Shown: positions 3,641 through 16,995 of the stretch, piece after piece | Layout of the letters: each line of letters opens with the position of its first letter | Position numbering within the stretch: the stretch's first letter is position 1 | From: a virus | Strand: one strand, 5' to 3' | UHGV virus genome: UHGV-1578121 | Length of the DNA: 16,995 nucleotides | Translations under genes and position numbers: made by a program | Notes under the pieces: generated by a model | Told to the model about the DNA's origin: nothing | Seen by the model: the letters and a program-made list of their open reading frames with translations, nothing else | The model's database searches: none

Positions 3641-3662
3641 TGGAGCGGGCGAAGGGAATCGA
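3641..3662 (-). other. 22-nt partial tRNA 3' end (T-loop to CCA), tRNA-Gly-like; att core/junction direct repeat
   Basis: Reverse complement of 3641-3662 is TCGATTCCCTTCGCCCGCTCCA = T-loop remnant + T-stem 3' strand + acceptor 3' strand + discriminator + CCA; sequence further 5' does not continue as a tRNA. Assignment to tRNA-Gly(CCC) is from memory and unverified. Confidence 0.55.
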
Positions 3663-3747
3663 GGAAACCCATAATAACCTGCTGTAAAATAAAGATTTTG
3701 TGATCAATCATAGGTAACTGATTACGTGATAATAGAGGATCATTATC

Positions 3748-4968
3748 GTGTCGATCAAGAGCCAAGCATACTTATTTAAAAGAAAAGATGGGATCTGGAT
3801 GTTTCAGATTTTTGTTCCTAAATACTTACGTCATCTTTACCCTTATAAGTTGTGGAGAAAAAGCACATCTACACGAGATCTGAATGAGGCGAGAAGATTC
3901 AGAAACCATCTATTATTAGAATGGGAGGAACTAAAGCGGAAACATAATCCTGATAACCCCGAAAGGAGGTTACAACAAGCTATTGAATCCTTACATTCAG
4001 AGGCAAGGGCCAATAAAAACACGCAAAGAGCCGTAAAACGCGGTTATGCACCGCCTTCCCTGTGCCTAATACGTGACGAATACGCCGAATGCTACAGAGA
4101 GCGTCGTTCATACTCAACACTACAGAAATCAGCAAGGGCCGTTGAGCTATTTTTACAAAGCATTCAGAAAGATGATATTCATATTGAGAAAATAGGCAGA
4201 CGGCTTGTAACAGTATTCTTAGATGACCAGAAGCAACGAGGAGCAGCCGATCAATCTCGTCAAAACTGGCTTACATGCTTAGGATCGCTCTATGAATTTG
4301 CTAAACGCCGTTATGACGGAATACCAGACAGTAACCCTTTTCACGGTCATAACCTCGAAGCACGTCGCACAATCGAGAGTTATCAACCGTTTACACCTGA
4401 ACAAATGCAAAAGCTACTTGATGCAGCGGAGCCGGAGATCAGAAATATTATCTTAATGGGCTTGTTTTCAGGGGCCAGATTAGACGAACTGGCAAGCCTG
4501 AAAAAGTCAGAGATTGTAACTGTGGAAGGAATACGCTGTTTTTATATCAGCAAGAGTAAGACTAAGGCAGGGATCAGACACGTTCCGATACATTCGAGAC
4601 TATCGATTATTGTCGATGAATATTTAAATCATAATTATGGTGAATATTTGTTCCCTCATTCAAATAAAGTAAAAAGAACCGACGGTAAGAAAGGCCCGTT
4701 CTATTCTCAAGCGTTCTCACGTTTACGTCGTAGCGTCTTGCCAATCGCTACAAATAGACAATGCTTTCACAGCTTGCGCGGGATGTTTATCACTTGTCTT
4801 GATCGTGCAGGAGTGCCTGAACAGCGGATCGGAGCCATTACCGGACATACAGAGCAGATAGCTAAAACAGAAGCCTTTCGCACCTACTCACAAGGGGCAA
4901 GCATTCCAGAATTAGCTGAATATGTAGAATTAGTAAAATATGAATTAAATATTGATTTTAAGGCGTAA
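3748..4968 (+). CDS. tyrosine recombinase / phage-type integrase (406 aa), second integrase, divergent from the P4-type one
   Basis: GTG start with AGAGGA upstream; C-terminal catalytic region contains HSLRGMFIT (H-x-x-R) and GHTEQIAKTEAFRTYSQ (His and Tyr); visibly more AT-rich codon usage than the left integrase. Confidence 0.8.
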   Translation: MSIKSQAYLFKRKDGIWMFQIFVPKYLRHLYPYKLWRKSTSTRDLNEARRFRNHLLLEWEELKRKHNPDNPERRLQQAIESLHSEARANKNTQRAVKRGYAPPSLCLIRDEYAECYRERRSYSTLQKSARAVELFLQSIQKDDIHIEKIGRRLVTVFLDDQKQRGAADQSRQNWLTCLGSLYEFAKRRYDGIPDSNPFHGHNLEARRTIESYQPFTPEQMQKLLDAAEPEIRNIILMGLFSGARLDELASLKKSEIVTVEGIRCFYISKSKTKAGIRHVPIHSRLSIIVDEYLNHNYGEYLFPHSNKVKRTDGKKGPFYSQAFSRLRRSVLPIATNRQCFHSLRGMFITCLDRAGVPEQRIGAITGHTEQIAKTEAFRTYSQGASIPELAEYVELVKYELNIDFKA

Positions 4969-4988
4969 AACAACGCCATAAACGTAAT

Positions 4989-5020
4989 AAAAAGGCTTCC
5001 TTGTAATGGGAGCCTCTTAT
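4989..5020. terminator. bidirectional intrinsic terminator between convergent genes
   Basis: aaaaaGGCTTCCttgtaatGGGAGCCtcttatat: imperfect GC stem flanked by an A-run on one side and a T-rich run on the other; sits between the stop of the plus-strand integrase (4968) and the stop of the minus-strand 613-aa gene (5076). Confidence 0.5.
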
Positions 5021-5075
5021 ATGCTTAATTCCTTACAAGAGTGTTTTAGATTGTGATTAAATATTCTCTTTATCA

Positions 5076-6917
5076 TTAACTTGGTGCTTGCCCAGACAGA
5101 GCCGCCAACGTGAAACTACGTTCAAAATCTTGTTGGATACTTCCCACTTTGTAATCGAGGTATGATCCAAGCTGACTACCATCAGGGGCGATATTCACAT
5201 CCACCTTGCTTTCCGGCACGTTTACGACGATGTTCGGTGCATACGTCATAGATGGGGTAGTGTTCAGATCACGGCTAACGTTCTGTTTCAAGGATTGCAC
5301 GTTATCGGATGGGCTGGAATAGTTCTGAATTGCAGTGCCGCCAGTTGTTGGCTTGTCTTCCGTGCCAGGGATAGGTGATAAGCCTAAAGCACTACGACCC
5401 CAATCAACCATACCCCCTACAAACGAGTCCTTATAATACATACCGGACGAATCCAATTGCTCGTGCTTATTCTCTGGATTGATTTTTTGATATGCAGCAG
5501 TGATCCACGATACAGCACCAGCAAAGGCGCTCATCATTTCAGCCGTTGAGCTTCCAAGTTCTCTAAACAGAGGATTGAGATCTTTCAGCATTTGCGCCCA
5601 CTCTTCACCAGCTTTCGCGTCGAATTCTTCACCGAATCCCGTCATGATAGCTTTCTTACTACCTTCCCAGGCCATATTCATATTGGCTTGCACTGCCTGG
5701 AGACGTTCAGCAGCGTCCAGATCCGCTTGTGTATAGGTGGCATTGGCTTTTTGCATCTTAACGATGGTTTTGTTTAGCTCTTCACCGTTACGACTGAAAG
5801 CACCACGGAAATATTGTAAATCATTTCCAAGATCTTCAAGAATATGACCTATTTCCTGATCAGAGAGTCCACGGCGTTCTCCTTCTTTCACTACAGCGCC
5901 CAGGAAACCTAATGGATCAGTCTGGAAACCTTTAACCTGTTCAGGACTCCAACCATATTTATTAAGGATGTTATCAACGGCACCGTTACCGCCAGCCCAG
6001 CGACCTTTTTTAGCGTCCCATTTGGTATTCCCTACGGATTCACCTAAACGCTCTTGAACGTCTTTAAGGTTATCTTGACGTTGAGAGACGGAACTATCAA
6101 CACCGTGTTCTAAGCCGTACTGGTTGAGTGCTAACAGGGCGTTAGTGTTGACGTTTACAGCCTTTGCCTTGCGGTTAGTGTCTGTGATCTTGCTTGCCTG
6201 ATCGGTTACGGTATTGAATATCGCAGCACCGCCGAGAGTAGCAGCAGTGAGAGCAGCACCGCCCGCCATTGCACCTACACTACCGCCCATATGACCGCCT
6301 TTAAGCTGTTTAGCCATATGTGGATACTTGCCACCATCAGCCGCCACCTGGCGAGCTTTTACAGCAGCCGCACGGCGTTCTAACGTGATACGATCACGGA
6401 TCAGGTGATTCATCTTAGCCTGACTAATAACGCCTTTCTCATACGCTGCCGTTTGTGCTTTGATGTACTGTAATGTTTTGTAGTATTGGGCGGAGTCCAT
6501 ACCGTCACCCATACGCCCCTTCTTGATGCCTTCAAGCTGTCTAAAAGCTTGCTGGCGTTTAATCTCTGCTTTCTCTGCTATCGTTGCTTTAGCGCGGATC
6601 TGTTTATCGGCAGCTATCGCGGCTTTAGCCTTCGCTTTAGCTTCTGCCTTTGCCACCTTATCAGCATTCTTCTTATCTGTTTGAGCTTGCTTGTCTGACG
6701 CTTTAGCATCAGCTTTAGCCTGTGCAGCTTTACGGGCCTTTACCAGATCGTTAGCATCGTCTATAGCTCGTTTAGCCTTCTTCCCTTTCAATGTTGGATT
6801 GGTTAGGTTTTCCATTTCTTTCTGAAATTTCTTACCTGCATCGCGTGCTTTCTGTAATGATGCAAAATCAACTTTAAAAACGACGCGGTTCGTTAAGGTT
6901 GAGATGTTCAACTCCAT
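5076..6917 (-). CDS. large Lys/Ala-rich coiled-coil protein with a Gly-rich hydrophobic segment; tape-measure-like / virion structural protein (613 aa)
   Basis: AAGGAAAA RBS before ATG 6917; N-terminal KAxAKA-type low-complexity coiled coil, then GGHMGGSVGAMAGGAALTAATLGGAAIF glycine-rich hydrophobic stretch as seen in tail tape-measure proteins; function inferred from composition only. Confidence 0.4.
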   Translation of the reverse strand: MELNISTLTNRVVFKVDFASLQKARDAGKKFQKEMENLTNPTLKGKKAKRAIDDANDLVKARKAAQAKADAKASDKQAQTDKKNADKVAKAEAKAKAKAAIAADKQIRAKATIAEKAEIKRQQAFRQLEGIKKGRMGDGMDSAQYYKTLQYIKAQTAAYEKGVISQAKMNHLIRDRITLERRAAAVKARQVAADGGKYPHMAKQLKGGHMGGSVGAMAGGAALTAATLGGAAIFNTVTDQASKITDTNRKAKAVNVNTNALLALNQYGLEHGVDSSVSQRQDNLKDVQERLGESVGNTKWDAKKGRWAGGNGAVDNILNKYGWSPEQVKGFQTDPLGFLGAVVKEGERRGLSDQEIGHILEDLGNDLQYFRGAFSRNGEELNKTIVKMQKANATYTQADLDAAERLQAVQANMNMAWEGSKKAIMTGFGEEFDAKAGEEWAQMLKDLNPLFRELGSSTAEMMSAFAGAVSWITAAYQKINPENKHEQLDSSGMYYKDSFVGGMVDWGRSALGLSPIPGTEDKPTTGGTAIQNYSSPSDNVQSLKQNVSRDLNTTPSMTYAPNIVVNVPESKVDVNIAPDGSQLGSYLDYKVGSIQQDFERSFTLAALSGQAPS

Positions 6918-6935
6918 AATATTTTCCTTTATCTC

Positions 6936-7151
6936 TTATTTATTCTGTTTTAATACGTAATATTGCACTGCTTCCATAGCGGAGCAGCCCGTAGCAAAAA
7001 TTCTTTGACGTACAGCGGTATTGCTGATCCCTAAAAACTTACATACTTGTGAGATATTTAGAATATCTTCCGGTAAGGTGGAAACAGCTTTCAAGATTTC
7101 AACTGGATTGTTATTTTGTGTGTTCATGGTTTTCTCACTTTTATTCGACAT
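6936..7151 (-). CDS. small HTH DNA-binding protein (71 aa; possibly starts at internal Met, ATG 7127)
   Basis: Contains ISQVCKFLGISNTAVRQRI, a typical helix-turn-helix of excisionase/AlpA-like small regulators; no clear SD at either candidate start. Confidence 0.45.
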   Translation of the reverse strand: MSNKSEKTMNTQNNNPVEILKAVSTLPEDILNISQVCKFLGISNTAVRQRIFATGCSAMEAVQYYVLKQNK

Positions 7152-7265
7152 TAGAAAACAAAAAGGGCAAAGAGATCAGAGCATATTTTGCGTATATGGT
7201 TAATCCCTTCGCCCTTATTGCCTGTTTTATTTCCAGTCGCACAGGAAACGACTATTAACGCTTTA

Positions 7266-8294
7266 TTACGATACAGTGATCTGTACGGTGAAGCCTACGC
7301 CGTGGTTTACAACCATCTGGCTATTCTCGGTAACTACGTTTACAGCGTCGTTACGTGCTGGGCTAAATGCATAGCTGTAATATTCAGCCGCGCCAGAATT
7401 CAGCAGGTCGAACGTTGAAGACGGAGCGCCGTAGATGTTCTGGTAAACGTTAGAGCCTTTAGCGAACTTCGGAACAGCAACCGCATCAGAAGTCATATGA
7501 GCCAGCAGCAGCGGATCGGTGACTTTGATGATATCAATGTTAGTGCCTGGAATAGTGAAGGTAGTCACACCTGGCAGCAGGGAGCGCACGCTATAAACGA
7601 TGTTTGCGTCATCGGTAGGGCTTGCATACTGGAACGCGTTAACCATGCCAGCACTATAACGGATAGCGTTGAAAGCGGCAGGTTTACAGAATACTACGAT
7701 ACGTTCTACAGCCGCTGCCTGACTTTGGGCCTTAGTGATAACGTCTGTATGCAATTGATCGAATTGCTGGAACACCGTAGAAGGTGTGGTGCTTGATGCG
7801 TCGATGGTTGCAGTCAGAGGAACAGCACTAAACAGATCGCCCCACTGGATCAGCACATCATCAGTTTTAGGGGTGTAAGTTTTACCACTGAACAAGGAAG
7901 CGGCTAATATGCTTTCTTTAGTACGCTGGAAAGCGATGTGATGCTTAGCAACATATTCCGCGTAGATATCTGTCAGAGTTTCTTCAACGGTAGCGCCTGG
8001 CTTACGTTTGCCTTGTACGTCTTGCGGTTTAATCACATCTTCACGCAGGAAGTAAGGGATTTCTACCAGCCATTCTTTACCCTGTTCACGCTTAGTTACG
8101 TTGTGTTCAGAAGAGAAACGAGAGGTTTCTTTGTTGAACAGAGATTCGTTAGTTTCTACCAGTTGGCTAACAGCCACTTTATGAGAACTCACGCCTACTG
8201 GATCAGTAAAGTCGAGAGAAGTTAACAGGAAGTTACGAGAGTCATGCAGACTAAACAGCGGAGCCAGATCGACGGATTCATTACCAATAATCAT
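7266..8294 (-). CDS. major capsid protein, lambda gpE-like (342 aa)
   Basis: AAGGAA RBS; length 342 aa vs 341 for lambda E; collinear local resemblances recalled against lambda E (APLFSLHDS vs DPLFLRLFF; ERIVVFCKPAAF vs VNIIVFDPKGWALF); immediately preceded by a ~120-aa gene in the D position. Confidence 0.55.
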   Translation of the reverse strand: MIIGNESVDLAPLFSLHDSRNFLLTSLDFTDPVGVSSHKVAVSQLVETNESLFNKETSRFSSEHNVTKREQGKEWLVEIPYFLREDVIKPQDVQGKRKPGATVEETLTDIYAEYVAKHHIAFQRTKESILAASLFSGKTYTPKTDDVLIQWGDLFSAVPLTATIDASSTTPSTVFQQFDQLHTDVITKAQSQAAAVERIVVFCKPAAFNAIRYSAGMVNAFQYASPTDDANIVYSVRSLLPGVTTFTIPGTNIDIIKVTDPLLLAHMTSDAVAVPKFAKGSNVYQNIYGAPSSTFDLLNSGAAEYYSYAFSPARNDAVNVVTENSQMVVNHGVGFTVQITVS

Positions 8295-8312
8295 TATGTT
8301 TATTCCTTTATA

Positions 8313-8684
8313 TTAAGATGTGAATACAGTGTTAAAACCAGCCATTTGGAAGCCTTTAGCAGCCAGAGCAGCAATAGCGGCTTCTTTAATAGCGCCTTCA
8401 ACATTCAGAGCATCAGACTTGATGCAAACCAGTCCGGCATTGCTACGCAGCACGTTAACGGTTTTAGCGTCGCCAGCGGATACCGCATCAGACACAACCA
8501 TAAGAACATCGCCGCCGCTTACATATTCAGCGCCGTCACTGGTAATCAGATCGCCGCATTCAACATCAACCGCCAGATCAACGGTAAAAGATTGCACACA
8601 ACCGAACTCATCAGTTGCATATGAAACGATATCGGTAAATGATTTGCGAACTGGAAACAGATCGCTCATATTAATAATAGCCAT
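8313..8684 (-). CDS. putative head decoration protein, gpD-like (123 aa)
   Basis: AAGGAAAC RBS; size and position directly upstream of the E-like capsid gene mimic the lambda D-E pair; Ala/Gly/Val-rich; no confident motif match. Confidence 0.4.
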   Translation of the reverse strand: MAIINMSDLFPVRKSFTDIVSYATDEFGCVQSFTVDLAVDVECGDLITSDGAEYVSGGDVLMVVSDAVSAGDAKTVNVLRSNAGLVCIKSDALNVEGAIKEAAIAALAAKGFQMAGFNTVFTS

Positions 8685-8686
8685 AA

Positions 8687-8902
8687 TTAATAGTTTCCTT
8701 TTTTGGATTGTTTGATTTGTTCTGCTTTTGCTTTAATCAGATCCTGCATAGTAGGTTTCTGTTCATCAGCAGACTTAAAAAGCTTATCACAATGTTTTTT
8801 CAATTCTGTTGGAGTGATCCCCAACATATAAGCCGTAGCATTGAATGTTTCATCAGTGATAATCAATTCTTCGTTACCATTCTTTAGAATTAGATTTTGC
8901 AT
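8687..8902 (-). CDS. hypothetical small protein (71 aa from internal ATG; ORF-track version 8687..8929)
   Basis: Stop overlaps the D-like start region (4-nt spacing); the second ATG has a weak AAAGG upstream, the first has none. Confidence 0.45.
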   Translation of the reverse strand: MQNLILKNGNEELIITDETFNATAYMLGITPTELKKHCDKLFKSADEQKPTMQDLIKAKAEQIKQSKKGNY

Positions 8903-8950
8903 TGTTGCTTTACCTTTTATTCCTAACATTCTTGTTTAGTGCTGATAAAA

Positions 8951-8980
8951 TAAAACCGGAAGGGAAAAGCTTCCGGCTTT
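8951..8980 (-). terminator. rho-independent terminator (minus-strand orientation favoured)
   Basis: Perfect 7-bp stem CCGGAAG/CTTCCGG with 7-nt loop; on the minus strand the stem is followed by TTTTATTTTAT; located immediately upstream of the capsid gene block. Confidence 0.6.
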
Positions 8981-9783
8981 ATGAATACAACATTGAAGGA
9001 TGTTATAGAGTAGTGTTACTAAATCGCAGTTATATGCACTTAAAGAGGTAGGACATATAAGAATAAGATTTCTTATTGTTATAAGCCCTTGAGGGGTGAA
9101 TAACAGGCTTACAGAGGAGTAGGCGCTTAGGAGGTCGCCCCCTTGGAAAGGAATCATTGTAAACCTGTTATTCGTGCGATGGCTAATCGCTGTCTTTCTC
9201 AATGTGGATGCATCGATCAGACTATTCAGGAATCACCTATTAACTTTCAAACCTTTTGGATTCTCATTTTAATAGGAGGCGGTGCCGAGATGATTTCGGG
9301 GATCATCCACGCTTTCGCGTTCTAAGATTGACACCTTAATAAACACCAACAAAAACATATTCAGCTCATTGTTGTCAAGAAACAATATACACCGTTATTT
9401 GTTTATACGGGGTTTATAGAACACTGAAAAACAGTGCTTTTAGAAAGTGTTTCGTGTTTCATGCTTCATAGTTGATTAAAAGATGAGGGGCCAAGTCCAT
9501 AGCCCCTGCATTCTCAAATACACAATATGATAAAGCAATAAAGAATAAGGAAAATAAAATGAAACTATTTTTTAAGAGGAAACAATTTCTAAAAATCACT
9601 GTAAATGGAAAGCGAGGTAGGTTAGATAGGGCGCAACCCCTTGAGGTCTACCCCGCTTTCATGTAGATTAGAATAGGGAGAAGAATTAACACCAGCTAAC
9701 TCCAATTTCCATTCAATACTCTTCATTTATTATTCTAACAGATTTGTCAGTAGAAGTCAATATTTAAATCAATAAAAATTAAT

Positions 9784-9876
9784 TTATTTTTCGTTTGTTA
9801 ATTCCCACTTACCGAACATGCAGTTGCCATCTAAAACAATAGTTTGTTCGTTACCGTTATCATCGGTTACGTGCAT
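9784..9876 (-). CDS. hypothetical small protein (30 aa), translationally coupled
   Basis: ATG overlaps the stop of the upstream 38-aa ORF (TGATG); reads MHVTDDNGNEQTIVLDGNCMFGKWELTNEK; below the ORF-track size cut-off, found by manual translation. Confidence 0.3.
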   Translation of the reverse strand: MHVTDDNGNEQTIVLDGNCMFGKWELTNEK

Positions 9877-9992
9877 CAGGCGGCCTGAGTGTCGAGCTTA
9901 CCAGTGTAGATCTTGCCTACTGTGAAACAATGGCACGATATGCCTTCTTCTGTAAGTGCCAGTAAACGGGCACGTTTGGTTTTTACTGTCAT
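9876..9992 (-). CDS. hypothetical small protein (38 aa), translationally coupled
   Basis: ATG overlaps the stop of the upstream 102-aa ORF (ATGA); reads MTVKTKRARLLALTEEGISCHCFTVGKIYTGKLDTQAA; found by manual translation. Confidence 0.3.
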   Translation of the reverse strand: MTVKTKRARLLALTEEGISCHCFTVGKIYTGKLDTQAA

Positions 9993-10297
9993 TGGTTAAC
10001 CTTATCGATTAGTTCTGCTATGAGTGGTTGAAGATCAGCTACCGCTTGTTGCATGATTTCAGTGGTGTCATTGATCACGATAATCAGGTTACTCAGATCA
10101 TCAGCTTCAACCTGTGCACCTTCGGATTGTTCGCACGCTGCAATAAGTAGTTGCAATGCTTCCCGCGTCGATTCCAGATTAATAACCGCCTGTGTGATGG
10201 TCAGTTCGCTTGGATATTCCATCGCTGCGTTAACTGCTTTCTGCAAGTCAATAACAAGGTCCATCATTTGGATAGTTACGTTGTGTACTTCGCTCAT
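9989..10297 (-). CDS. hypothetical highly acidic alpha-helical protein (102 aa)
   Basis: Provided ORF; strongly acidic composition (many D/E, few K/R); start overlaps stop of the upstream 70-aa ORF by 1 nt. Confidence 0.55.
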   Translation of the reverse strand: MSEVHNVTIQMMDLVIDLQKAVNAAMEYPSELTITQAVINLESTREALQLLIAACEQSEGAQVEADDLSNLIIVINDTTEIMQQAVADLQPLIAELIDKVNQ

Positions 10298-10509
10298 TAT
10301 GCCGCTTCCTCTAATTGTTGTTGTGCTTCACGAGCTTTAGTCAATGCAATCTGTAGCGGTATTCTGTAAGTTGCAATGCTGTCTACAACGTCATCCAGAG
10401 TTGCCAGATCGTTCTCTTCCTTTGCACGTTCAATAATATTTATAAAACATTCTGAAAGAAGCTTAAGATCATGAAAAGTGGTTGTCTCTAAAATTACTTT
10501 GTTAATCAT
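10297..10509 (-). CDS. hypothetical acidic helical protein (70 aa)
   Basis: Provided ORF; coupled to the downstream 102-aa ORF; ends with QQQLEEAA helical tail. Confidence 0.5.
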   Translation of the reverse strand: MINKVILETTTFHDLKLLSECFINIIERAKEENDLATLDDVVDSIATYRIPLQIALTKAREAQQQLEEAA

Positions 10510-10550
10510 TTTATTTTCCTTTTGTTAAGGGTTATATTCAGCCAACGCTG

Positions 10551-10931
10551 TTAATCGTCTATTTTTATTCTTTCAAGCATAAGTAACTCTGTCTCTCTTG
10601 CGCCTGCATACTGCAAACTATTAAGAGCCATGTAGCCACGAAAATGATTCATATCCTGGAAGCCTAAACACTGCCACCTTTTAAGAAGGCTGCTATCAAT
10701 GATTGTTGTTTTGCGTGGGCGTGGATTGAAGTAAACACCATCCATACTTTGAATGATTGATAATTCTTCGTCTGTCAATTCTGGGCTTGGTTCTTCAAGT
10801 ATAAAGATCAATTCCTCGCCTGGTTGTGCATCATGCTCATAATTATATTTGCGAGGATTGTTTAACGCATACTGATCACATGCTTCGCCAATAGCCATTA
10901 TTACGTTTTTCTTGCTTTTTTGCTTGCTCAT
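10551..10931 (-). CDS. hypothetical protein (126 aa)
   Basis: Provided ORF with strong AGGGGA RBS about 7 nt upstream of the ATG; no recognisable motif. Confidence 0.55.
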   Translation of the reverse strand: MSKQKSKKNVIMAIGEACDQYALNNPRKYNYEHDAQPGEELIFILEEPSPELTDEELSIIQSMDGVYFNPRPRKTTIIDSSLLKRWQCLGFQDMNHFRGYMALNSLQYAGARETELLMLERIKIDD

Positions 10932-11043
10932 TGCTTCCCCTTCGTTTTGGTTTTCTTGTTGCAGTGTTAAAAAAGGAAGCGATCATGAATACTAAGAAAA
11001 ATATTAAGCTTTCCATTGTTTCACCCTTCAAGATGTTTGATAG

Positions 11044-11064
11044 TTGTTTGTTGTTTGTTGTTTG
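11044..11064. repeat. tandem heptamer repeat (TTGTTTG)x3 in an intergenic gap
   Basis: Read directly: ttgtttg ttgtttg ttgtttg tttt between the 72-aa and 126-aa minus-strand genes. Confidence 0.6.
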
Positions 11065-11066
11065 TT

Positions 11067-11285
11067 TTAAGCTACAGAGTCGATTCTGAATGCTTTCATA
11101 TGAGTTTTTGTATACTGCAATAATCCTTGTTTACTTAGGTTATCGAGAAGAGCATATAAAAATTGCACACCTACCACACCGGAAAACTCAGAATCAAACA
11201 GAATCATTCCCGTTCTTTCCCGTAAATATTGCAGAAAGATTTCTTGTGAAAATTCGCCATCGAATATGATCACAGTGTCACCCAC
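11067..11285 (-). CDS. hypothetical protein (72 aa); GTG start with no RBS, may be the C-terminal part of a frameshifted gene together with 11270..11527
   Basis: Provided ORF; first codon is GTG with an in-frame stop immediately upstream; overlaps the 85-aa ORF by 16 nt in another frame. Confidence 0.35.
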   Translation of the reverse strand: MGDTVIIFDGEFSQEIFLQYLRERTGMILFDSEFSGVVGVQFLYALLDNLSKQGLLQYTKTHMKAFRIDSVA

Positions 11286-11527
11286 AATTCAAACGGGCTT
11301 ATCTCAAGCAGTCTGAACGTTTGATTATTCACAGCTTCATACTGAATTACCCCAAAATGGCTTAGGTGATTTAGCCAATGCTGCGTGTGTTCTTTACTGT
11401 GCGGTAACTCCTGAAAGCTGATAATCGCGGGTAGCTCATAATTGCTATCAGCAAGCTGTTTTGCCAGTGTGTAGCCGCTTTCTGTAATTTCGAATGTTCG
11501 TTTGTTTAATGTCAGGTTGTATTTCAT
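11270..11527 (-). CDS. hypothetical protein (85 aa); possibly the N-terminal part of a frameshifted/fused gene
   Basis: Provided ORF, tightly packed after the 221-aa gene; 3' end overlaps the next ORF. Confidence 0.45.
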   Translation of the reverse strand: MKYNLTLNKRTFEITESGYTLAKQLADSNYELPAIISFQELPHSKEHTQHWLNHLSHFGVIQYEAVNNQTFRLLEISPFELWVTL

Positions 11528-11539
11528 TTTTTATTCTCC

Positions 11540-12205
11540 TTAAAATGGTATTGAGTCATAGATTTCACTTTCTTTTCTCAGGGCTATCATCAGTGCATTA
11601 AAAGCATCATCTTCAAGAATTATCCTCTTCGAGGTCAGTGCACGTTTTATAAAATTTTCTGTTTCTTCTTGCATAGGCTTTTGGCTGTCTATGGAAATAA
11701 GCCATGTAAAAAGATCAGATTGTTCCGTGATTTCTGCCTGTGTTTCCTGCTCAATAGAGTGTGTCGCTTCTAACGGTTCCTGTGTTTCAGGTGCAGGCTG
11801 TTCTACGTTTACAGAGGTTTTTACGTCTTCCGGTGGTGTGATGTGTGCATCTGTAAAGGGTAATGCTTTATAGAGTGATGTTTGCCCGTCCCGTGCCTCT
11901 ACAGAAAGAACACCCATATCAATAAACATATTTATAATATTACGCACCTGACGATCACTAACCATTCCAATATTAGCTAATGTTTTTTGATTGGCGTAAC
12001 ATTCTTGCCCTTGTTCATTGAACCCAGCTACGTAACTGTAGATTTCAACGGCTGGAAGTGTCGCGGTGTATTCCTTACCTGACGGTGAGAACCACTTTTT
12101 AAACATCTTCAGCCATTGTTCAACTACTACATATGTTTGTTTACTATCTTTCTTATTGAGGCATTGCGCTTTTGCTTCGGCAATTGTTTTGGTGTTTTGG
12201 TTCAT
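11540..12205 (-). CDS. putative replication-initiator-like / winged-HTH DNA-binding protein with acidic C-terminal half (221 aa)
   Basis: Strong AAGGAGG RBS; N-terminal region YSYVAGFNEQGQECYANQKTLANIGMVSDRQVRNIINMFIDMGVL resembles the N-terminal DNA-binding domain of lambda-O-type replisome organisers (recalled pattern); C-terminal part E/Q/T-rich. Confidence 0.45.
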   Translation of the reverse strand: MNQNTKTIAEAKAQCLNKKDSKQTYVVVEQWLKMFKKWFSPSGKEYTATLPAVEIYSYVAGFNEQGQECYANQKTLANIGMVSDRQVRNIINMFIDMGVLSVEARDGQTSLYKALPFTDAHITPPEDVKTSVNVEQPAPETQEPLEATHSIEQETQAEITEQSDLFTWLISIDSQKPMQEETENFIKRALTSKRIILEDDAFNALMIALRKESEIYDSIPF

Positions 12206-12329
12206 TTAGTTCCTCCTTTGTAAGGACTGTAATTAGTAATTCATTAACAAGTTTTGGAATTGATTTCCCTTCTGCCTTTGCACGATTTAACAACGCGTTA
12301 TAAGTTGCAGAATCAAAATTAATATTCAT
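12153..12329 (-). CDS. putative ribbon-helix-helix-like small regulator (58 aa), overlaps start of the 221-aa gene
   Basis: Manual translation MNINFDSATYNALLNRAKAEGKSIPKLVNELLITVLTKEE: beta-strand then helix pattern typical of RHH/CopG-like proteins; strong AAGGAG RBS; 53-nt out-of-frame overlap with the next gene lowers confidence. Confidence 0.35.
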   Translation of the reverse strand: MNINFDSATYNALLNRAKAEGKSIPKLVNELLITVLTKEELNEPKHQNNCRSKSAMPQ

Positions 12330-12352
12330 TTGGCTTTCTCCTTCTCCTGTTA

Positions 12353-12535
12353 TTATTCTTTCTCTACTTCTGCCTTACGCAGTTCATCAATAATTTTTAG
12401 TGCATCGTCAAAGCATTTTTCACGCTCTGGATAACCACAGCGCCGCGCTGTGTTCCTGTTCATCCTTACTTGATGTCGTGTTAGCTCACCTTTTTTAAAT
12501 GCCTCTACGACGTGTTCCGGTGTATACCATTTCAT
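12353..12535 (-). CDS. hypothetical small basic protein (60 aa), first gene of the leftward early operon
   Basis: Provided ORF with strong AAGGAG RBS 6 nt upstream; directly downstream of the long non-coding region. Confidence 0.5.
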   Translation of the reverse strand: MKWYTPEHVVEAFKKGELTRHQVRMNRNTARRCGYPEREKCFDDALKIIDELRKAEVEKE

Positions 12536-13404
12536 AAAAACTCCTTATTTAGATAAAAGAAAAACACACCTTGCAGCCTAACGGCTCAAAGTGCAGTGTT
12601 CTGTGATTTGATTATTTAGATGGAGAGAGATGTTTCTCCCCTCCCTACTTACAATACTACATAACGGCGGCTTTGTCAACCCTCTTTTATAAAAAATTTG
12701 ATCATTTTCAATTTCTTATAATTTTTCTTAGCTTTTTGTGCTGCCTACTCTGGTACAATTCTTCCCTGTTGTCTAAAACGCTCTCAATCGCACTCTGACG
12801 GGGTTTTGATAAAAATAATACATTCCCTTATGTAGAGGTTGTTTATCTCGTCAGAGGCTTATTTAAGGGGCTTATTTTTGATTTATCAGATGATGGAAAG
12901 ATGGTGGATAGATAAACTCTGATTTCAGACATCTTATAAAATACCTGCAAAGTTCTCAGAAGCTCTGTAACGAGCTAATCTATTACCGCTAAGGTGTTTC
13001 CCTTACATTACCCTGTTTAGCTCGCCTACGGCTTGATTTAAGCGGTAGAATCTTATTTAACCTTCAACTACAAAAACCATTCTTTCTTTTTTGTTGTTGG
13101 TTGTTTTGTCATGTTATGCGTTAGCATCCCCAAAGGGTAACGCGACACTAACAACCATTCGCTTACGCTCAGGTTATTGCACAAGTAAATTTCAATCGTT
13201 AGATGGTAGTTAGTTAATTATCGTTCTGCGCACAGCGCAAGACTATTAGCCATACGCAAGTCGTAGGCTATTTGCACATAGTAGATTACATATTCGTTGT
13301 GAGCGGAAAGCGAACATAGATCAGCTAACTACTAACAAAAAACAAAAAACAAAAACTATCTGTTATGACAAGCATCAGTCTAACTTGTGCAAGGTTCTGG
13401 CGAA

Positions 13405-13473
13405 TGCCAATAGATTAAGGGATAGTCGAAGACTCCCTAACGGGTATCCCTATAATTATTCTTTAAAAGATAA
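13405..13473. repeat. copy 1 of a ~70-bp direct repeat containing a nested hairpin (AGGGATA...TATCCCT) and a TATAAT hexamer
   Basis: tgccaatagattaagggatagtcgaagactccctaacgggtatccctataattattctttaaaagataa read directly; near-identical copy at 13588-13657. Confidence 0.7.
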
Positions 13474-13518
13474 AAGAATTTATAAAAGATAGTTTAATTG
13501 TAGTTTAATTATAGTATT

Positions 13519-13571
13519 GTAGGAACTCATTTCCTGGGTAGGTAGGAACTCATTTCCTGGGTAGGTAGGAA
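13519..13571. repeat. 23-bp tandem repeat x2.3 (gtaggaactcatttcctgggtag), each unit with internal palindrome AGGAA-ctcat-TTCCT
   Basis: Read directly; lies between the two copies of the 70-bp direct repeat. Confidence 0.7.
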
Positions 13572-13587
13572 ACCCGCACTATACGAT

Positions 13588-13657
13588 TGCCAATAGATTA
13601 AGGGATAGTCGAAGACTCCCCTAACGGGTATCCCTATAATTATTCTTTAAAAGATAA
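13588..13657. repeat. copy 2 of the ~70-bp direct repeat (one extra C relative to copy 1)
   Basis: tgccaatagattaagggatagtcgaagactcccctaacgggtatccctataattattctttaaaagataa read directly. Confidence 0.7.
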
Positions 13658-14334
13658 TTATAGTTAGTTGTTAGTTTTATTATTAGTATTATTAAAGTAA
13701 TCTTATTGTCAGTCATCGTGACCGACACCCCCCCACACAACATCTGTGCAATGATCTTCTAAAAGTGTTTCTTGCTATCAAAAATTAAAAAAACAGGCTT
13801 AAATTCAAGATTAATTGATGATTAATCCCTATGTAATTCCATACTAAAAATTCAATGAAAAGTAGATTCAAAGTGCAATTCTTACTTTCTTCACTTTTAC
13901 ATTATCATCAGCAAAGCCTTATGTAATGCGGCATATAGCGTATCACTGCAAAATTGTTGCTCAATAAACGTTCTACCATTTGTTGAACGAATGTTCACTC
14001 GTGCACATCTCAAAGAGAATAATTATTTATCATACAATTCCATAATAAGAATTATTATCACTTATAATGCAATACAACCCAGATTCGATACACTTTAGCA
14101 AAGTGTATTCTGTAACCTACTGATCTTTATATACTCAGGCATATATAGACCATTTATCGCTATTTATTGGCTTTTTTTCATCTGCCGAAAATAAATTTCT
14201 TGACAAGACAGATCATTTGTGAGCGGCTTGCATAAAATAAATTTACTTATAAATCAACAAGATATTTCATATTTGTGCCTGCATCAGATCGGGAGGCTTG
14301 ATCTTTGTGTTCAACGATGGTGACGGACGCACCT

Positions 14335-14420
14335 AAATTAAATCGGTTTTAATCGCCTTTAATACCTTTTAATCAGTCTTAATCACCTTTTAATAGCCCT
14401 TTAATCATTTTTGATCATTT
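14335..14420. promoter_or_regulatory. array of eight TTTTAATC-like repeats phased at 10-11 bp (helical repeat): candidate curved DNA / iteron / protein-binding array upstream of the short recombinase gene
   Basis: aatcggtttt aatcgccttt aatacctttt aatcagtctt aatcaccttt taatagccct ttaatcattt ttgatcattt read directly with near-constant 10-bp period. Confidence 0.6.
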
Positions 14421-14517
14421 AGTGCTCTCAACCATAAAACGTATCGTGCAACATATTGAAAATGATCATTTTATGATCAAAACTACTTTCATTGAAACGA
14501 ATAAGGAGAGTATAAAG

Positions 14518-15096
14518 ATGAAAGGTATTAGCCAAGCCCTCAAGAATGTAGACGAGGTAAAAACAGTAGCAGCAGAGCTACAGCGCAATAGTAAAACCAA
14601 CCTGTTTTATTGCTTATGGGTGTTTATGTATGAAAGCGGGTTGCGTGTCTCTGACGTACTCAAGCTAAAATATCAGGATGTTGAGGGGCAATCTCATTTG
14701 AAGATAAAGCAGGAGAAAACCGGAAACGTAGTAAGGCCAAAAGTTACCCCCGCCATGTTGTCAGTGGTGGCACAACGCAAGGCAGAGCAAACGAAGATGC
14801 CTGTAGCTACAGATTTTATTTTCAGTGCTGGCACATTACGCAGTAAAGGCGAAGCCGTAACCCGTAACACGGTATTCACTGAATTTGGGAAGATGGGACG
14901 TAGAGCCGGATTCTCTAATGTGGGATGCCATACGCCACGTAAAAGTCGGGGCCGTGTGATGTTTGATGCAGGGGTAGCTATAGAGACAATAGCCCATTTC
15001 CTGGGACAGACAGATCCGCGCTCTACTATGTATTACATCGGGTATGGTCAGGATGTGCAGGACGATTTAGCAGAGGAGTTTTCTTTAGAATGGTGA
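14518..15096 (+). CDS. short tyrosine recombinase, catalytic domain only, FimB/FimE-like (192 aa)
   Basis: Start moved to ATG 14518, which has AAGGAG 8 nt upstream (ORF-track start 14422 has none); motifs LFYCLWVFMYESGLRVSDVLKLKYQDV (box I Arg), CHTPRKSRGR (H-x-x-R) and LGQTDPRSTMYY (catalytic Tyr); size typical of invertase-type recombinases. Confidence 0.75.
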   Translation: MKGISQALKNVDEVKTVAAELQRNSKTNLFYCLWVFMYESGLRVSDVLKLKYQDVEGQSHLKIKQEKTGNVVRPKVTPAMLSVVAQRKAEQTKMPVATDFIFSAGTLRSKGEAVTRNTVFTEFGKMGRRAGFSNVGCHTPRKSRGRVMFDAGVAIETIAHFLGQTDPRSTMYYIGYGQDVQDDLAEEFSLEW

Positions 15097-15305
15097 TCCA
15101 AATTAAAAGCTTATTTGTGCTGACGTTGGCGCTATTGCCTGTCCTATCGAATGCCGGACAGATAACAATGGTCAACCCACAGGAAGAACAGACGGAGAAT
15201 GGAAAAACGCTGTGCACGTATCAGAACAGCAATTATCTGTTCACTTACGTAACTAAGGGGAAATGCCCTTATGCAAAAACATTTGACACTTCCGCCAAAG
15301 AATAA
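15090..15305 (+). CDS. small secreted protein (71 aa precursor) with predicted signal peptide and two Cys in the mature part
   Basis: N-terminus MVIQIKSLFVLTLALLPVLSNA followed by GQ looks like a Sec signal peptide with AxA-type cleavage site; ATG overlaps the recombinase stop (ATGGTGA), suggesting coupling. Confidence 0.45.
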   Translation: MVIQIKSLFVLTLALLPVLSNAGQITMVNPQEEQTENGKTLCTYQNSNYLFTYVTKGKCPYAKTFDTSAKE

Positions 15306-15310
15306 CGATT

Positions 15311-15730
15311 TTAACGGGATTTTGGATAAATGCTGTTTCTGCAATTAATGCAATACCAACTCGCGGAGTATTGACCAACGGCACGCGAAAAAACCATGTG
15401 TGTTTGCACCTTATCAACTTCAAAGCATTTGGGACAGTAGGCTGTTTCATCGCCTTCTTTCCAGTAAAGTCCATCTTTGAAAGTGAAGGTGTGCTTATCC
15501 TTTAGCTGCTCTTCAAGCTGCTTATTTTTCTGTTCAGCCTCAAAAAGAAGTGCTTGGGTTGTGATTACTTCCATCTTCACACTTGCAAGTTCGCTCATGA
15601 GGTTAGCAAGCTCAAGTTTAAGCGTTGCTTTATCAAGTTCGCCGCCATCATCAGCGAGCTTCTTTGCAATACCTACAGCTTTGTCAATGATACCTACAGC
15701 CGCCGCTGTACTTGCCAACACTCCAGACAT
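15311..15730 (-). CDS. hypothetical coiled-coil protein with C-terminal CxxC...CxxC zinc-ribbon-like motif (139 aa)
   Basis: Provided ORF; RBS TTAGGGGCAAT-ATG; C-terminus CPKCFEVDKVQTHMVFSRAVGQYSASWYCINC; N-terminal half predicted helical. Confidence 0.55.
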   Translation of the reverse strand: MSGVLASTAAAVGIIDKAVGIAKKLADDGGELDKATLKLELANLMSELASVKMEVITTQALLFEAEQKNKQLEEQLKDKHTFTFKDGLYWKEGDETAYCPKCFEVDKVQTHMVFSRAVGQYSASWYCINCRNSIYPKSR

Positions 15731-15752
15731 ATTGCCCCTAATTTTAACAAGT

Positions 15753-16388
15753 TCACTTTATAAAAGCTAAAGCCCTAAGAACGGTTTTTAACCGCGTTAC
15801 CTGCTCAGGCTTTTCAAGTTCATCCAAATTAACATTAATTTTATCTAAACAGATGGCTATACGTGACATAACCTCGCCATGAATCTGCTTCAAACCTTCG
15901 CCATATTGAGTGGCAATATGGTAAGTCTGTTCTAAATTAAAACGATGGATATCTTTCTGCGTTTCATGAAATATGGTTTGAAGTTTAGCTAAGTCCTCTA
16001 AAACCTGATTATTCATTCTGAAAGTATCAACCAGACTCCTTGCTGAGCCATAACAAATAACAATTGCCTTCATTGTCTCTTCATTAACAGAAGTTAATGC
16101 AAAAGAGTTGCTTTCATAGAATGAGAAATAATTTTGAGTCAACGGAAAGATGCTTTCAAAAGGTTTACCACCTTCATAATTTTCAAGAGAATCGTAAATT
16201 CTGGCTTTATAAAGTTCCAGAAGCGTTTCGACTTCTGCTTTTATTCCAATCAAGACACTCTTTTGCTTATCCTTTGCTTCATTAAATGAAGCTCTGTCTT
16301 GCCTACGTCCATCGATCAGAGTACCCCACAGGGTGAACAATCCCCCTATCAAGGCACCAACTAAACCAGAAATCAGTTCACTTCCCAT
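15753..16388 (-). CDS. hypothetical membrane-anchored protein (211 aa from ATG 16388; ORF-track version starts at TTG 16403)
   Basis: RBS TTAGGGGGCAAC-ATG; N-terminal hydrophobic helix SELISGLVGALIGGLFTLWGTLI followed by a soluble domain; no recognised motif. Confidence 0.55.
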   Translation of the reverse strand: MGSELISGLVGALIGGLFTLWGTLIDGRRQDRASFNEAKDKQKSVLIGIKAEVETLLELYKARIYDSLENYEGGKPFESIFPLTQNYFSFYESNSFALTSVNEETMKAIVICYGSARSLVDTFRMNNQVLEDLAKLQTIFHETQKDIHRFNLEQTYHIATQYGEGLKQIHGEVMSRIAICLDKINVNLDELEKPEQVTRLKTVLRALAFIK

Positions 16389-16403
16389 GTTGCCCCCTAA
16401 CAA

Positions 16404-16964
16404 TCATTTTTGACGGCAATGATCCCATTGCTCAGTAGTCCTTGCAACTCGATCACTGATTGCAAAGTTATTCAGCAACGAATCATAAGCGTACACTTTG
16501 CTTTTATCATCTGCTGTCATCAACTTACCATCAGGTTTCAACTTTGGCGAAAGCAAGTATGTACCGTTTAAACGGTTAGCTTTGAAGCTATCAACATGCA
16601 ACGTTACTTCAGCACTTCCCAGCACACGTAAAGAACCTATTCTACCATTCTGTACTGCTGCAATAGCGTACTGACAGAGATAGGTTTTCGCAGTTGAAGC
16701 TGTGTTTTTTCCCTCAACCTTCGCTGATGGGGAATGTGAAGAGGAGTTAGGGATTGAACTATGAAGAGAAGATGATGGGTAAGAGTAAGAATAATTTTTA
16801 TACGCAGAAGAGGTGCTTGATCCAATCCTGCACGTTTTTCCAACCGCAATGCACGAATTACCGCATGGTATACCTTTCTTGCAGTTCTTCGCGTATGTAG
16901 AGAACGACAACCCAGCTAATAGAAATGTACCAATGGTTATCCTAACCAGCGAAGACCAACCCAT
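16404..16964 (-). CDS. hypothetical secreted protein (186 aa): signal peptide, Cys-rich knot (C-x5-C-x3-C-x6-C), Ser/Tyr-rich linker, C-terminal domain
   Basis: Strong GAAGGGGGGG RBS; N-terminus MGWSSLVRITIGTFLLAGLSFSTYA is signal-peptide-like; low-complexity SSTSSAYKNYSYSYPSSS linker. Confidence 0.55.
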   Translation of the reverse strand: MGWSSLVRITIGTFLLAGLSFSTYAKNCKKGIPCGNSCIAVGKTCRIGSSTSSAYKNYSYSYPSSSLHSSIPNSSSHSPSAKVEGKNTASTAKTYLCQYAIAAVQNGRIGSLRVLGSAEVTLHVDSFKANRLNGTYLLSPKLKPDGKLMTADDKSKVYAYDSLLNNFAISDRVARTTEQWDHCRQK

Positions 16965-16995
16965 AACCCCCCCTTCTTTTTAGTTTTTCCCTACA

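Follow-up and report, generated by a model that had tools for sequence, protein, structure and literature searches.

FimB and FimE of Escherichia coli, together with HbiF, IpuA and FimX, are tyrosine recombinases of about 190-200 amino acids (aa) that consist of the catalytic domain only. They use R-K-H-R-Y chemistry and are encoded next to their presumed DNA target. Short recombinases of PHROG 216 are also found on plasmids and phages of Firmicutes, in hosts that are mostly Gram-positive, and these proteins are uncharacterised. On Lactobacillus plasmids, 195-aa 'INT_C_like_3' integrases such as ORF1 of pRC12 adjoin toxin-antitoxin and rep genes (PMC7117683). Here a 192-aa tyrosine recombinase encoded in the UHGV virus genome UHGV-1578121 is analyzed together with the small peptide gene that overlaps its stop codon; the stretch of DNA under study, 16,995 nucleotides (nt) long, is called the window throughout.

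The recombinase shares its size, its catalytic-domain-only architecture, its chemistry and the position of its gene beside a presumed target with FimB and FimE. Unlike them, it has no demonstrable invertible segment, carries Gln where tyrosine recombinases canonically have His, and is encoded in a replicating integrative island, not beside a fimbrial promoter. The Firmicutes proteins are of equal length, align end to end at 25-35% identity and likewise adjoin Rep or stability genes, in their case on small plasmids. In contrast to them, the clade described here is confined to islands of Enterobacteriaceae, has Gln164 and comes with a coupled peptide that is predicted to be exported. Taken together, the sequence comparisons indicate a selectively maintained recombinase that is most likely a housekeeping resolvase for the island DNA rather than a fim-type switch. 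The central features are:

14518..15096, plus strand: recombinase open reading frame (ORF), 192 aa, supported by PF00589, PHROG 216, the XerA alignment and a ratio of non-synonymous to synonymous substitution rates (dN/dS) of ~0.09
14409..14492, plus strand: conserved non-coding block directly 5' of the recombinase gene, candidate cognate recombination site and promoter
15090..15305, plus strand: peptide ORF, 71-aa precursor, ~49 aa when mature, beta-rich, PHROG 4641 at E 7e-7

The recombinase, its active site and its family

The coordinates originally given for the two ORFs are both correct, and an AAGGAG ribosome-binding site lies 8 nt 5' of the recombinase ATG. Pfam PF00589 covers residues 12-174 (58.7 bits against a gathering threshold of 27.1, E 8e-16), and the protein is therefore essentially one catalytic domain, as the original prediction had described it. 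The catalytic residues were assigned by aligning the protein with Pyrococcus XerA (PDB 4a8e) and with 132 distant relatives, and are R43 (in GLRVSD), K67, H138-T-P-R141 and Y173; these five residues hardly vary over the 133 rows formed by the relatives and the query. Both alignments agree with the earlier description of a protein that has the box I Arg, H-x-x-R and the catalytic Tyr, with LGQ in place of LGH. The residue in question, Gln164, occupies the usual His/Trp position nine residues ahead of Y173. Among the 132 aligned cluster representatives this position is His in 121 and Gln in 8 (~6%). LGQ is fixed throughout the clade of 85-100% identity to the recombinase, and LGH is found in the nearest out-group, which is 60% identical. 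As judged from these alignments, the Gln164 variant is real and fixed in the clade, yet recurrent across the family and apparently tolerated. The variant active site of the original prediction is thus present but not exceptional, given the 8 Gln among the 132 other representatives and the LGH of the nearest out-group.

Codon comparison with orthologues from Salmonella, Klebsiella, Buttiauxella, Kluyvera and Enterobacter gave a dN/dS of 0.08-0.10 for the recombinase at a synonymous divergence (dS) of 0.7-1.1, and of 0.13-0.26 for the peptide. By this measure, both genes are under purifying selection. The length of 192 aa is kept in 7 genera, and the exact recombinase sequence is indexed in 5,467 blocks of a public assembly collection.

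A HMMER search (E<=0.001) recovered 832 cluster representatives related to the recombinase; among the best 150 of these, most are 180-195 aa long and are aligned end to end (~residues 5-190). The best family match is PHROG 216 (E 1.2e-27). Relatives of ~30% identity were located by tblastn on plasmids of Enterococcus, Bacillus and Carnobacterium and in Streptococcus phages, and one of them sits 1.3 kb from repB on a 12.6-kb plasmid. The label 'FimB/FimE-like' in the original prediction fits the size and short architecture of the protein and fails for its family, as the NCBIfam models for FimB/FimE-type invertases, NF007371 and NF007370, reached 30.6 and 29.2 bits, below their cut-offs of 222 and 221. 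The two integron integrase models scored 33.6 bits against 265 and 15.7 against 435, which leaves the models of both families that had been proposed for scoring the active site far under threshold. With the Xer models (XerC, XerD, XerA and XerS) the scores were 21-43 bits against cut-offs of 220-335, and the C-terminal domain alone aligned. On the strength of these comparisons, the recombinase is a member of the widespread stand-alone recombinases of ~180-195 aa (PHROG 216) and not of FimB/FimE. As a further member of an already known group, it is fairly ordinary when taken alone.

An interchangeable recombinase slot in a replicating island

The window matches E. coli chromosomes. The recombinase lies within a 13.85-kb island (window 3641-16995) that is integrated at tRNA-Gly(CCC), and the matching tRNA-Gly(CCC) is found ~0.5 kb past the right end of the window. 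The features that define integration and replication of the island are:

3641..3662, plus strand: distal att repeat TGGAGCGGGCGAAGGGAATCGA, 22 bp, identical to the 3' end of tRNA-Gly(CCC)
3748..4968, plus strand: full-length island integrase, 406 aa, PHROG 1 at E 3e-38, from annotation
11540..12205, minus strand: replication-initiator-like protein, 221 aa, HTH_36, with matches to replication initiation O-like and DnaD-like PHROGs
13401..13657, no strand assigned: probable replication origin, AT-rich, with 23-nt iterons (~2.5 copies, 13519-13575) between 74-nt direct repeats

The iterons are part of a 2-kb ORF-less region of AT-rich DNA. Across three Rep types, the recombinase and peptide genes always follow the Rep genes and an iteron-bearing ORF-less region of 1.4-2.5 kb, and the same architecture recurs in Klebsiella, Salmonella, Kluyvera, Buttiauxella, Enterobacter and Citrobacter. 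The recombinase is thereby encoded on the replicon itself, beside the probable origin and Rep, an arrangement expected of a multimer-resolution or cyclisation module.

A sister E. coli island (L007) has an integrase that is 97% identical, a Rep protein that is 70% identical and rep region DNA that is 81% identical; its ORF-less region matches the window at 81-88% identity up to position 13996. In the position of the tyrosine recombinase it carries a serine recombinase of 183 aa (PF00239, E 1e-38), whose closest match is the Tn3 / gamma-delta resolvase (100 bits). All three exact copies of TGTRGTGAT in the 25.6-kb locus, plus two copies with one mismatch, lie within 130 nt 5' of the serine recombinase gene:

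L007 13701-13816: half-site cluster, five TGTRGTGAT, res-like
L007 13832-14383: serine resolvase gene

Among 5,426 complete E. coli genomes, the serine module was found in 296 and the tyrosine module in 37, so that the serine version is 8 times commoner. In Citrobacter islands a different 186-aa tyrosine recombinase (27% identity, with the canonical His) precedes a peptide gene that is 82% identical. The occupancy of an identical slot suggests, by analogy, that the serine and tyrosine recombinases may have an equivalent function. A slot filled by unrelated recombinases is as expected of a generic housekeeping recombination function. The fim-type reading of the original prediction does not fit this context, namely a tRNA-Gly-integrated, replication-competent and capsid-encoding island whose sister holds a serine resolvase in the same slot.

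The second conserved element is the DNA immediately 5' of the recombinase gene. Sequences of different genera become homologous precisely at TTTTGATCA (14409, box 1) and stay so up to the recombinase ATG. From -110 to -26, this block (85 nt) is 77-91% identical to that of the 60%-identical out-group (L036), whereas the coding sequence is only 64-71% identical; the non-coding block is thus more constrained than the gene, and it spans more sequence than a promoter needs. Each island carries one copy of it. The block contains three TGATCA boxes and is abutted by a repeat array:

14412..14417, no strand assigned: TGATCA box 1, its GATC invariant in the intergenus alignment
14463..14468, no strand assigned: TGATCA box 2, centre of the 14-16-bp palindrome (G)AAAATGATCATTTT(C)
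14474..14479, no strand assigned: TGATCA box 3, 11 bp from box 2
14340..14420, plus strand: TTTAATCnnn array, ~8 tandem units with a 10-11-bp period, abutting box 1

GATC occurs in all conserved boxes (14412, 14463, 14474 and 12699). A Dam-family methylase is encoded within the ORF-less region of Klebsiella islands (L005 8495-9184), and in S. arizonae (L009) boxes 2 and 3 are both mutated to TATC. The sequence hints at a methylation-sensitive control of the recombinase and rep promoters. The TTTAATCnnn array is present in E. coli and Klebsiella islands only and absent in other genera, and it may be a binding array for a protein. A ribbon-helix-helix-like protein of 58 aa is encoded at 12153-12329 (minus strand).

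The original prediction had stated that no inverted repeats bracketing a promoter are visible in the window. A perfect 14-bp inverted repeat, TGATCATTTTCAAT, does in fact bracket a 1.74-kb ORF-less region adjoining the recombinase:

12699..12712, plus strand: left 14-mer TGATCATTTTCAAT, ~20 nt upstream of the TTGACA -35 of the rep operon
14455..14468, minus strand: right 14-mer TGATCATTTTCAAT, holding a TTGAAA -35-like hexamer that faces the recombinase gene
12679-12651, minus strand: leftward rep-operon promoter TTGACA-17-TATTGT

The right copy lies 50 nt 5' of the recombinase ATG, and with <=2 mismatches the window contains 3 matches to the 14-mer, where 0.35 would be expected at random. For an inversion test, a synthetic junction for a flipped 12713-14454 segment was searched in the 5,426 complete E. 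coli genomes and in metagenome contigs. In the complete genomes, query coverage at any one locus did not exceed 53%. None of the 36 complete E. coli genomes with the full module had an inverted allele, nor did any of 10 further assemblies or of 4 metagenome contigs, and all of these are collinear; the metagenome contigs gave 0 exact matches for the inverted junction against 4 for the native one. The search for inversion junctions near the gene, which had been proposed as a check on the original prediction and was carried out here in assemblies, thus returned none from genomes, assemblies or metagenome contigs; a low-frequency inversion at the level of reads is still conceivable.

The left 14-mer precedes the GGGTTGACAAA -35 of the leftward rep-operon promoter at a fixed distance of 19-20 nt. 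It is degenerate in islands with the serine recombinase, also occurs with the Citrobacter recombinase, and is missing in Buttiauxella, Kluyvera, Enterobacter and some Klebsiella islands that carry the same recombinase. On account of this fixed spacing, its presence with other recombinases and its absence from some carriers, the 14-mer was rejected as a recombination site and is read as a shared regulatory element. The inverted pair would then be two outward-facing copies of a shared promoter-region element.

The coupled peptide and further island features

The start of the 71-aa peptide lies within ATGGTGA and overlaps the recombinase stop. In some relatives translation more probably begins at an ATG 12 nt 3' of the overlapping one; E. 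coli has ATT at that position, and therefore the overlapping ATG must serve. The precursor shows the n-h-c pattern of a signal peptide, with K6, a 13-residue hydrophobic core (hydrophobic residues 8-19) and S-N-A followed by G, with small residues at -3/-1. This signal peptide is conserved in alignments. Two allele types of the peptide exist, the second having A-H-A followed by G, and both possess the signal peptide and two cysteines. Cys42 and Cys59 are invariant among relatives, of which there are 494 homologue clusters. The overlap of stop and start, the signal peptide and the two cysteines are therefore as first described.

The pairing of the two genes, which the original prediction did not recognise from fim-type loci, is likewise real. 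It is conserved in E. coli, Salmonella, Klebsiella, Buttiauxella, Kluyvera, Enterobacter and Citrobacter and in the 60%-identical out-group, where the peptide has a TTG start that overlaps the recombinase end. In every context examined the peptide gene is linked to a short tyrosine recombinase, and the 71-aa ORF is a genuine, translationally coupled gene. An AlphaFold (AF2) model of the mature peptide shows a five-strand beta meander with a predicted local distance difference test score (pLDDT) >87. No match to this fold was found in the PDB (best E 0.7), and the fold matches in BFVD are unnamed phage homologues only. Phage homologues of the peptide occur only in Justusliebigvirus / Phapecoctavirus-type phages of 140-155 kb. 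The three best, in Klebsiella phages KP2025, KP13-26 and FKP3, come from the same phages that give the best phage matches to the gp134-like protein of the island (see below); in FKP3 the homologue does not adjoin a recombinase. The peptide is predicted to be exported by the Sec pathway as a small beta protein of ~49 aa, and phi92-like virulent phages have it as well. It is probably the product of an envelope-acting accessory gene that is co-transcribed with the recombinase.

Two further genes relate the island to phages:

5076-6917, minus strand: 613-aa homologue of phi92 gp134 (p613), E 1e-50
7266-8294, minus strand: capsid-E-like protein, island gene

The best phage matches of p613 are virulent myoviruses of the genera Phapecoctavirus and Justusliebigvirus. 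For the capsid protein, tblastn against known phages gave no phage match at 1e-8. With its capsid and phi92-gp134-like genes and a Rep with iterons, the island looks like a phage satellite, and the 13.85-kb tRNA-Gly element looks like the representative of an undescribed satellite family. A literature search for the protein accession, the island type and satellites of Phapecoctavirus retrieved no paper. Sister islands carry an additional Dit-like tail protein or a Dam methylase, and their cargo is variable. In the window, a three-gene cargo operon (139, 216 and 186 aa; 15311-16964, minus strand) separates the peptide gene from the tRNA; other strains have the 139-aa gene and a DUF4145 protein in its place. 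The 186-aa cargo protein matches function-unassigned phage families (PHROG 2578). A PADLOC search of the neighbouring cargo for a defence system reported nothing significant, and a novel defence or accessory cargo is possible.

The non-coding DNA around the rep operon contains two structured elements. A conserved leader of ~100 nt with two hairpins follows the rep-operon promoter (window 12545-12680, minus strand). The second hairpin, immediately ahead of the first gene, resembles an intrinsic terminator, with a stem and UGUUUUUCUUUU; the fold z-score is -3.7. The leader, which is reminiscent of the CI-RNA immunity of P4, suggests attenuation or a small RNA as judged from its sequence. On the opposite strand, a multi-hairpin element of ~270 nt (13087-13353, plus strand) has a long closing stem, TTTTTTGTTGTTGGTTGTT / AACTACTAACAAAAAAC, and RNA fold z-scores of -3.7 on the plus strand and -2.0 on the minus strand. 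Four diverged islands preserve the closing stem together with five hairpins, with 5 compensatory pairs among them, and a 600-nt variable insert of other strains (L002 15086-15686) holds similar hairpin modules. A search for known RNAs in the ORF-less region gave no Rfam match at gathering score or E<=1. The multi-hairpin element may be a structured RNA, or it may act as single-strand DNA.

Proposed role, alternatives and comparison with known systems

The recombinase would most likely serve to resolve multimers of the excised island or to cyclise it, using a site within the upstream block; we give this role somewhat less than an even chance. Integration and excision would be carried out by the separate 406-aa integrase, and the recombinase would be an accessory module. 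It would bind a single cognate site in the block at 14409-14492 with its three TGATCA boxes, and recombination would take place between directly repeated copies of that site. Multimers of the excised replicating island would thereby be resolved, or packaged concatemers cyclised, as in Cre/loxP, Xer/cer and resolvase/res. In the active site, Gln164 would replace His/Trp as hydrogen-bond donor without abolishing function. We infer recombination activity, the position of the site and this role from several lines of evidence: the replacement of the recombinase in the slot, its position after Rep and iterons, the conservation and the single copy of the block, the invariant R, K, H, R and Y, the dN/dS of 0.09, the recurrence of Gln and the relatives that adjoin Rep on Firmicutes plasmids. 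In addition, integration is already explained by the dedicated large integrase and the att repeats.

Several points weigh against a role in resolution or cyclisation. No recombination product has been observed, and the crossover site in the block is only a candidate; a classical core site (11-13-bp inverted arms with a 6-8-bp spacer) was sought by eye in the block and none was convincing. The block contains promoter-like elements, so its conservation may be partly regulatory. A resolvase is not obviously useful for a satellite that is packaged from concatemers, and the plasmid and phage relatives of the family are themselves uncharacterised. Finally, a serine recombinase in the slot would also be compatible with the role of an invertase.

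Inversion of the 1.74-kb ORF-less segment between the 14-mers, either as a fim-like switch of divergent operons or as a Flp/2-micron-like re-orientation of forks for copy number, is quite improbable. The perfect repeat does adjoin the gene, the 14-mer pair is exactly conserved in a Klebsiella island with flanks of only ~69% identity, and the short architecture equals that of FimB/FimE. These points are set against the collinear arrangement of all complete genomes, further assemblies and metagenome contigs, the loss of the left copy from several islands with the same recombinase, and the tie of this copy to the rep-operon -35, where it also accompanies other recombinases. A second integrase or cassette recombinase that moves its own module between islands or captures cargo is somewhat easier to conceive and still unlikely. 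The recombinase is 88-90% identical across genera when other island proteins reach 27-58%, box 1 marks the exact boundary of homology, TGATCA-containing sequence flanks the swap to the Citrobacter recombinase on both sides, and the right-hand cargo differs between strains. However, the intergenus dS of 0.7-1.1 shows that constraint, not recent transfer, keeps the proteins so similar; no second copy of the block marks a right end of the module, and the cargo is a tight opposite-strand operon without attC-like repeats.

It is also conceivable that the change from His to Gln cripples catalysis and that the protein is a DNA-binding regulator of its own and the rep operon, acting via the TGATCA motif that is shared by both promoters. 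The substitution does affect a catalytic-site residue, but R43, K67, H138, R141 and Y173 are all kept at a dN/dS of 0.09, Gln recurs independently in the family together with an intact Tyr, and the motif is also found in islands with other recombinases, which makes a purely regulatory protein a poor candidate. In mutant studies of H265 of the vaccinia topoisomerase, Gln reportedly substitutes in part at the equivalent position. The chance that the gene is the remnant of a truncated full-length integrase, and the small ORF a chance reading frame, is very close to nil, although the protein is as short as 192 aa and a 406-aa integrase is encoded in the same island. The gene is preceded by a ribosome-binding site of its own and by the conserved block, its length is kept in 7 genera at a dN/dS of 0.09, and most of the best 150 among the 832 relatives at E<=0.001 are ~180-195 aa long and align end to end. 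The peptide, with a dN/dS of 0.13-0.26 and 494 homologue clusters, is no chance frame either. A truncated integrase pseudogene, which would have undone the original prediction, is refuted by selection (dN/dS 0.08-0.10), conserved length and full-length relatives of ~180-195 aa.

If the island DNA is indeed resolved or cyclised by this recombinase, small satellite-like islands of Enterobacteriaceae keep a plasmid-style housekeeping recombinase apart from their integrase, and unrelated recombinases (two tyrosine lineages and one serine lineage) have been exchanged in one slot. A compact single-domain recombinase with a site of ~85 bp or less would also be a potential tool. The more interesting lead is the island family with its link to phi92-like virulent phages, as the recombinase alone is unsurprising. 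A more far-reaching proposal, which we regard as speculative and rather doubtful, is that the recombinase and its block form a minimal Cre/lox-like device, swappable with a serine resolvase, in undescribed satellites of ~13-14 kb that parasitise virulent phi92-like (Stephanstirmvirinae) myoviruses, and that the coupled exported protein is a phage-derived factor with an action at the envelope in this interaction. In a less likely variant, the inverted 14-mers would let the recombinase flip the origin region for amplification in the style of the 2-micron plasmid.

The closest functional parallels to the proposed resolution or cyclisation are Cre/loxP of the phage-plasmid P1 and Xer/cer, where a tyrosine recombinase acts beside its site on a phage-packaged replicon. 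Cre and XerC/D have an extra N-terminal DNA-binding domain that the recombinase lacks, the XerA, XerD and XerC models score 33-43 bits on it against cut-offs of 220-335, and no lox- or dif-like core was recognised in the block. The cre promoter is Dam-regulated through GATC sites, and the GATC sites of the block recall it. The Tn3 / gamma-delta resolvase with its res site differs further, as its fold is unrelated to that of the recombinase and its catalytic mechanism is another one; nevertheless, it is a serine recombinase of this resolvase type, with clustered upstream half-sites, that fills the identical slot in the sister islands.

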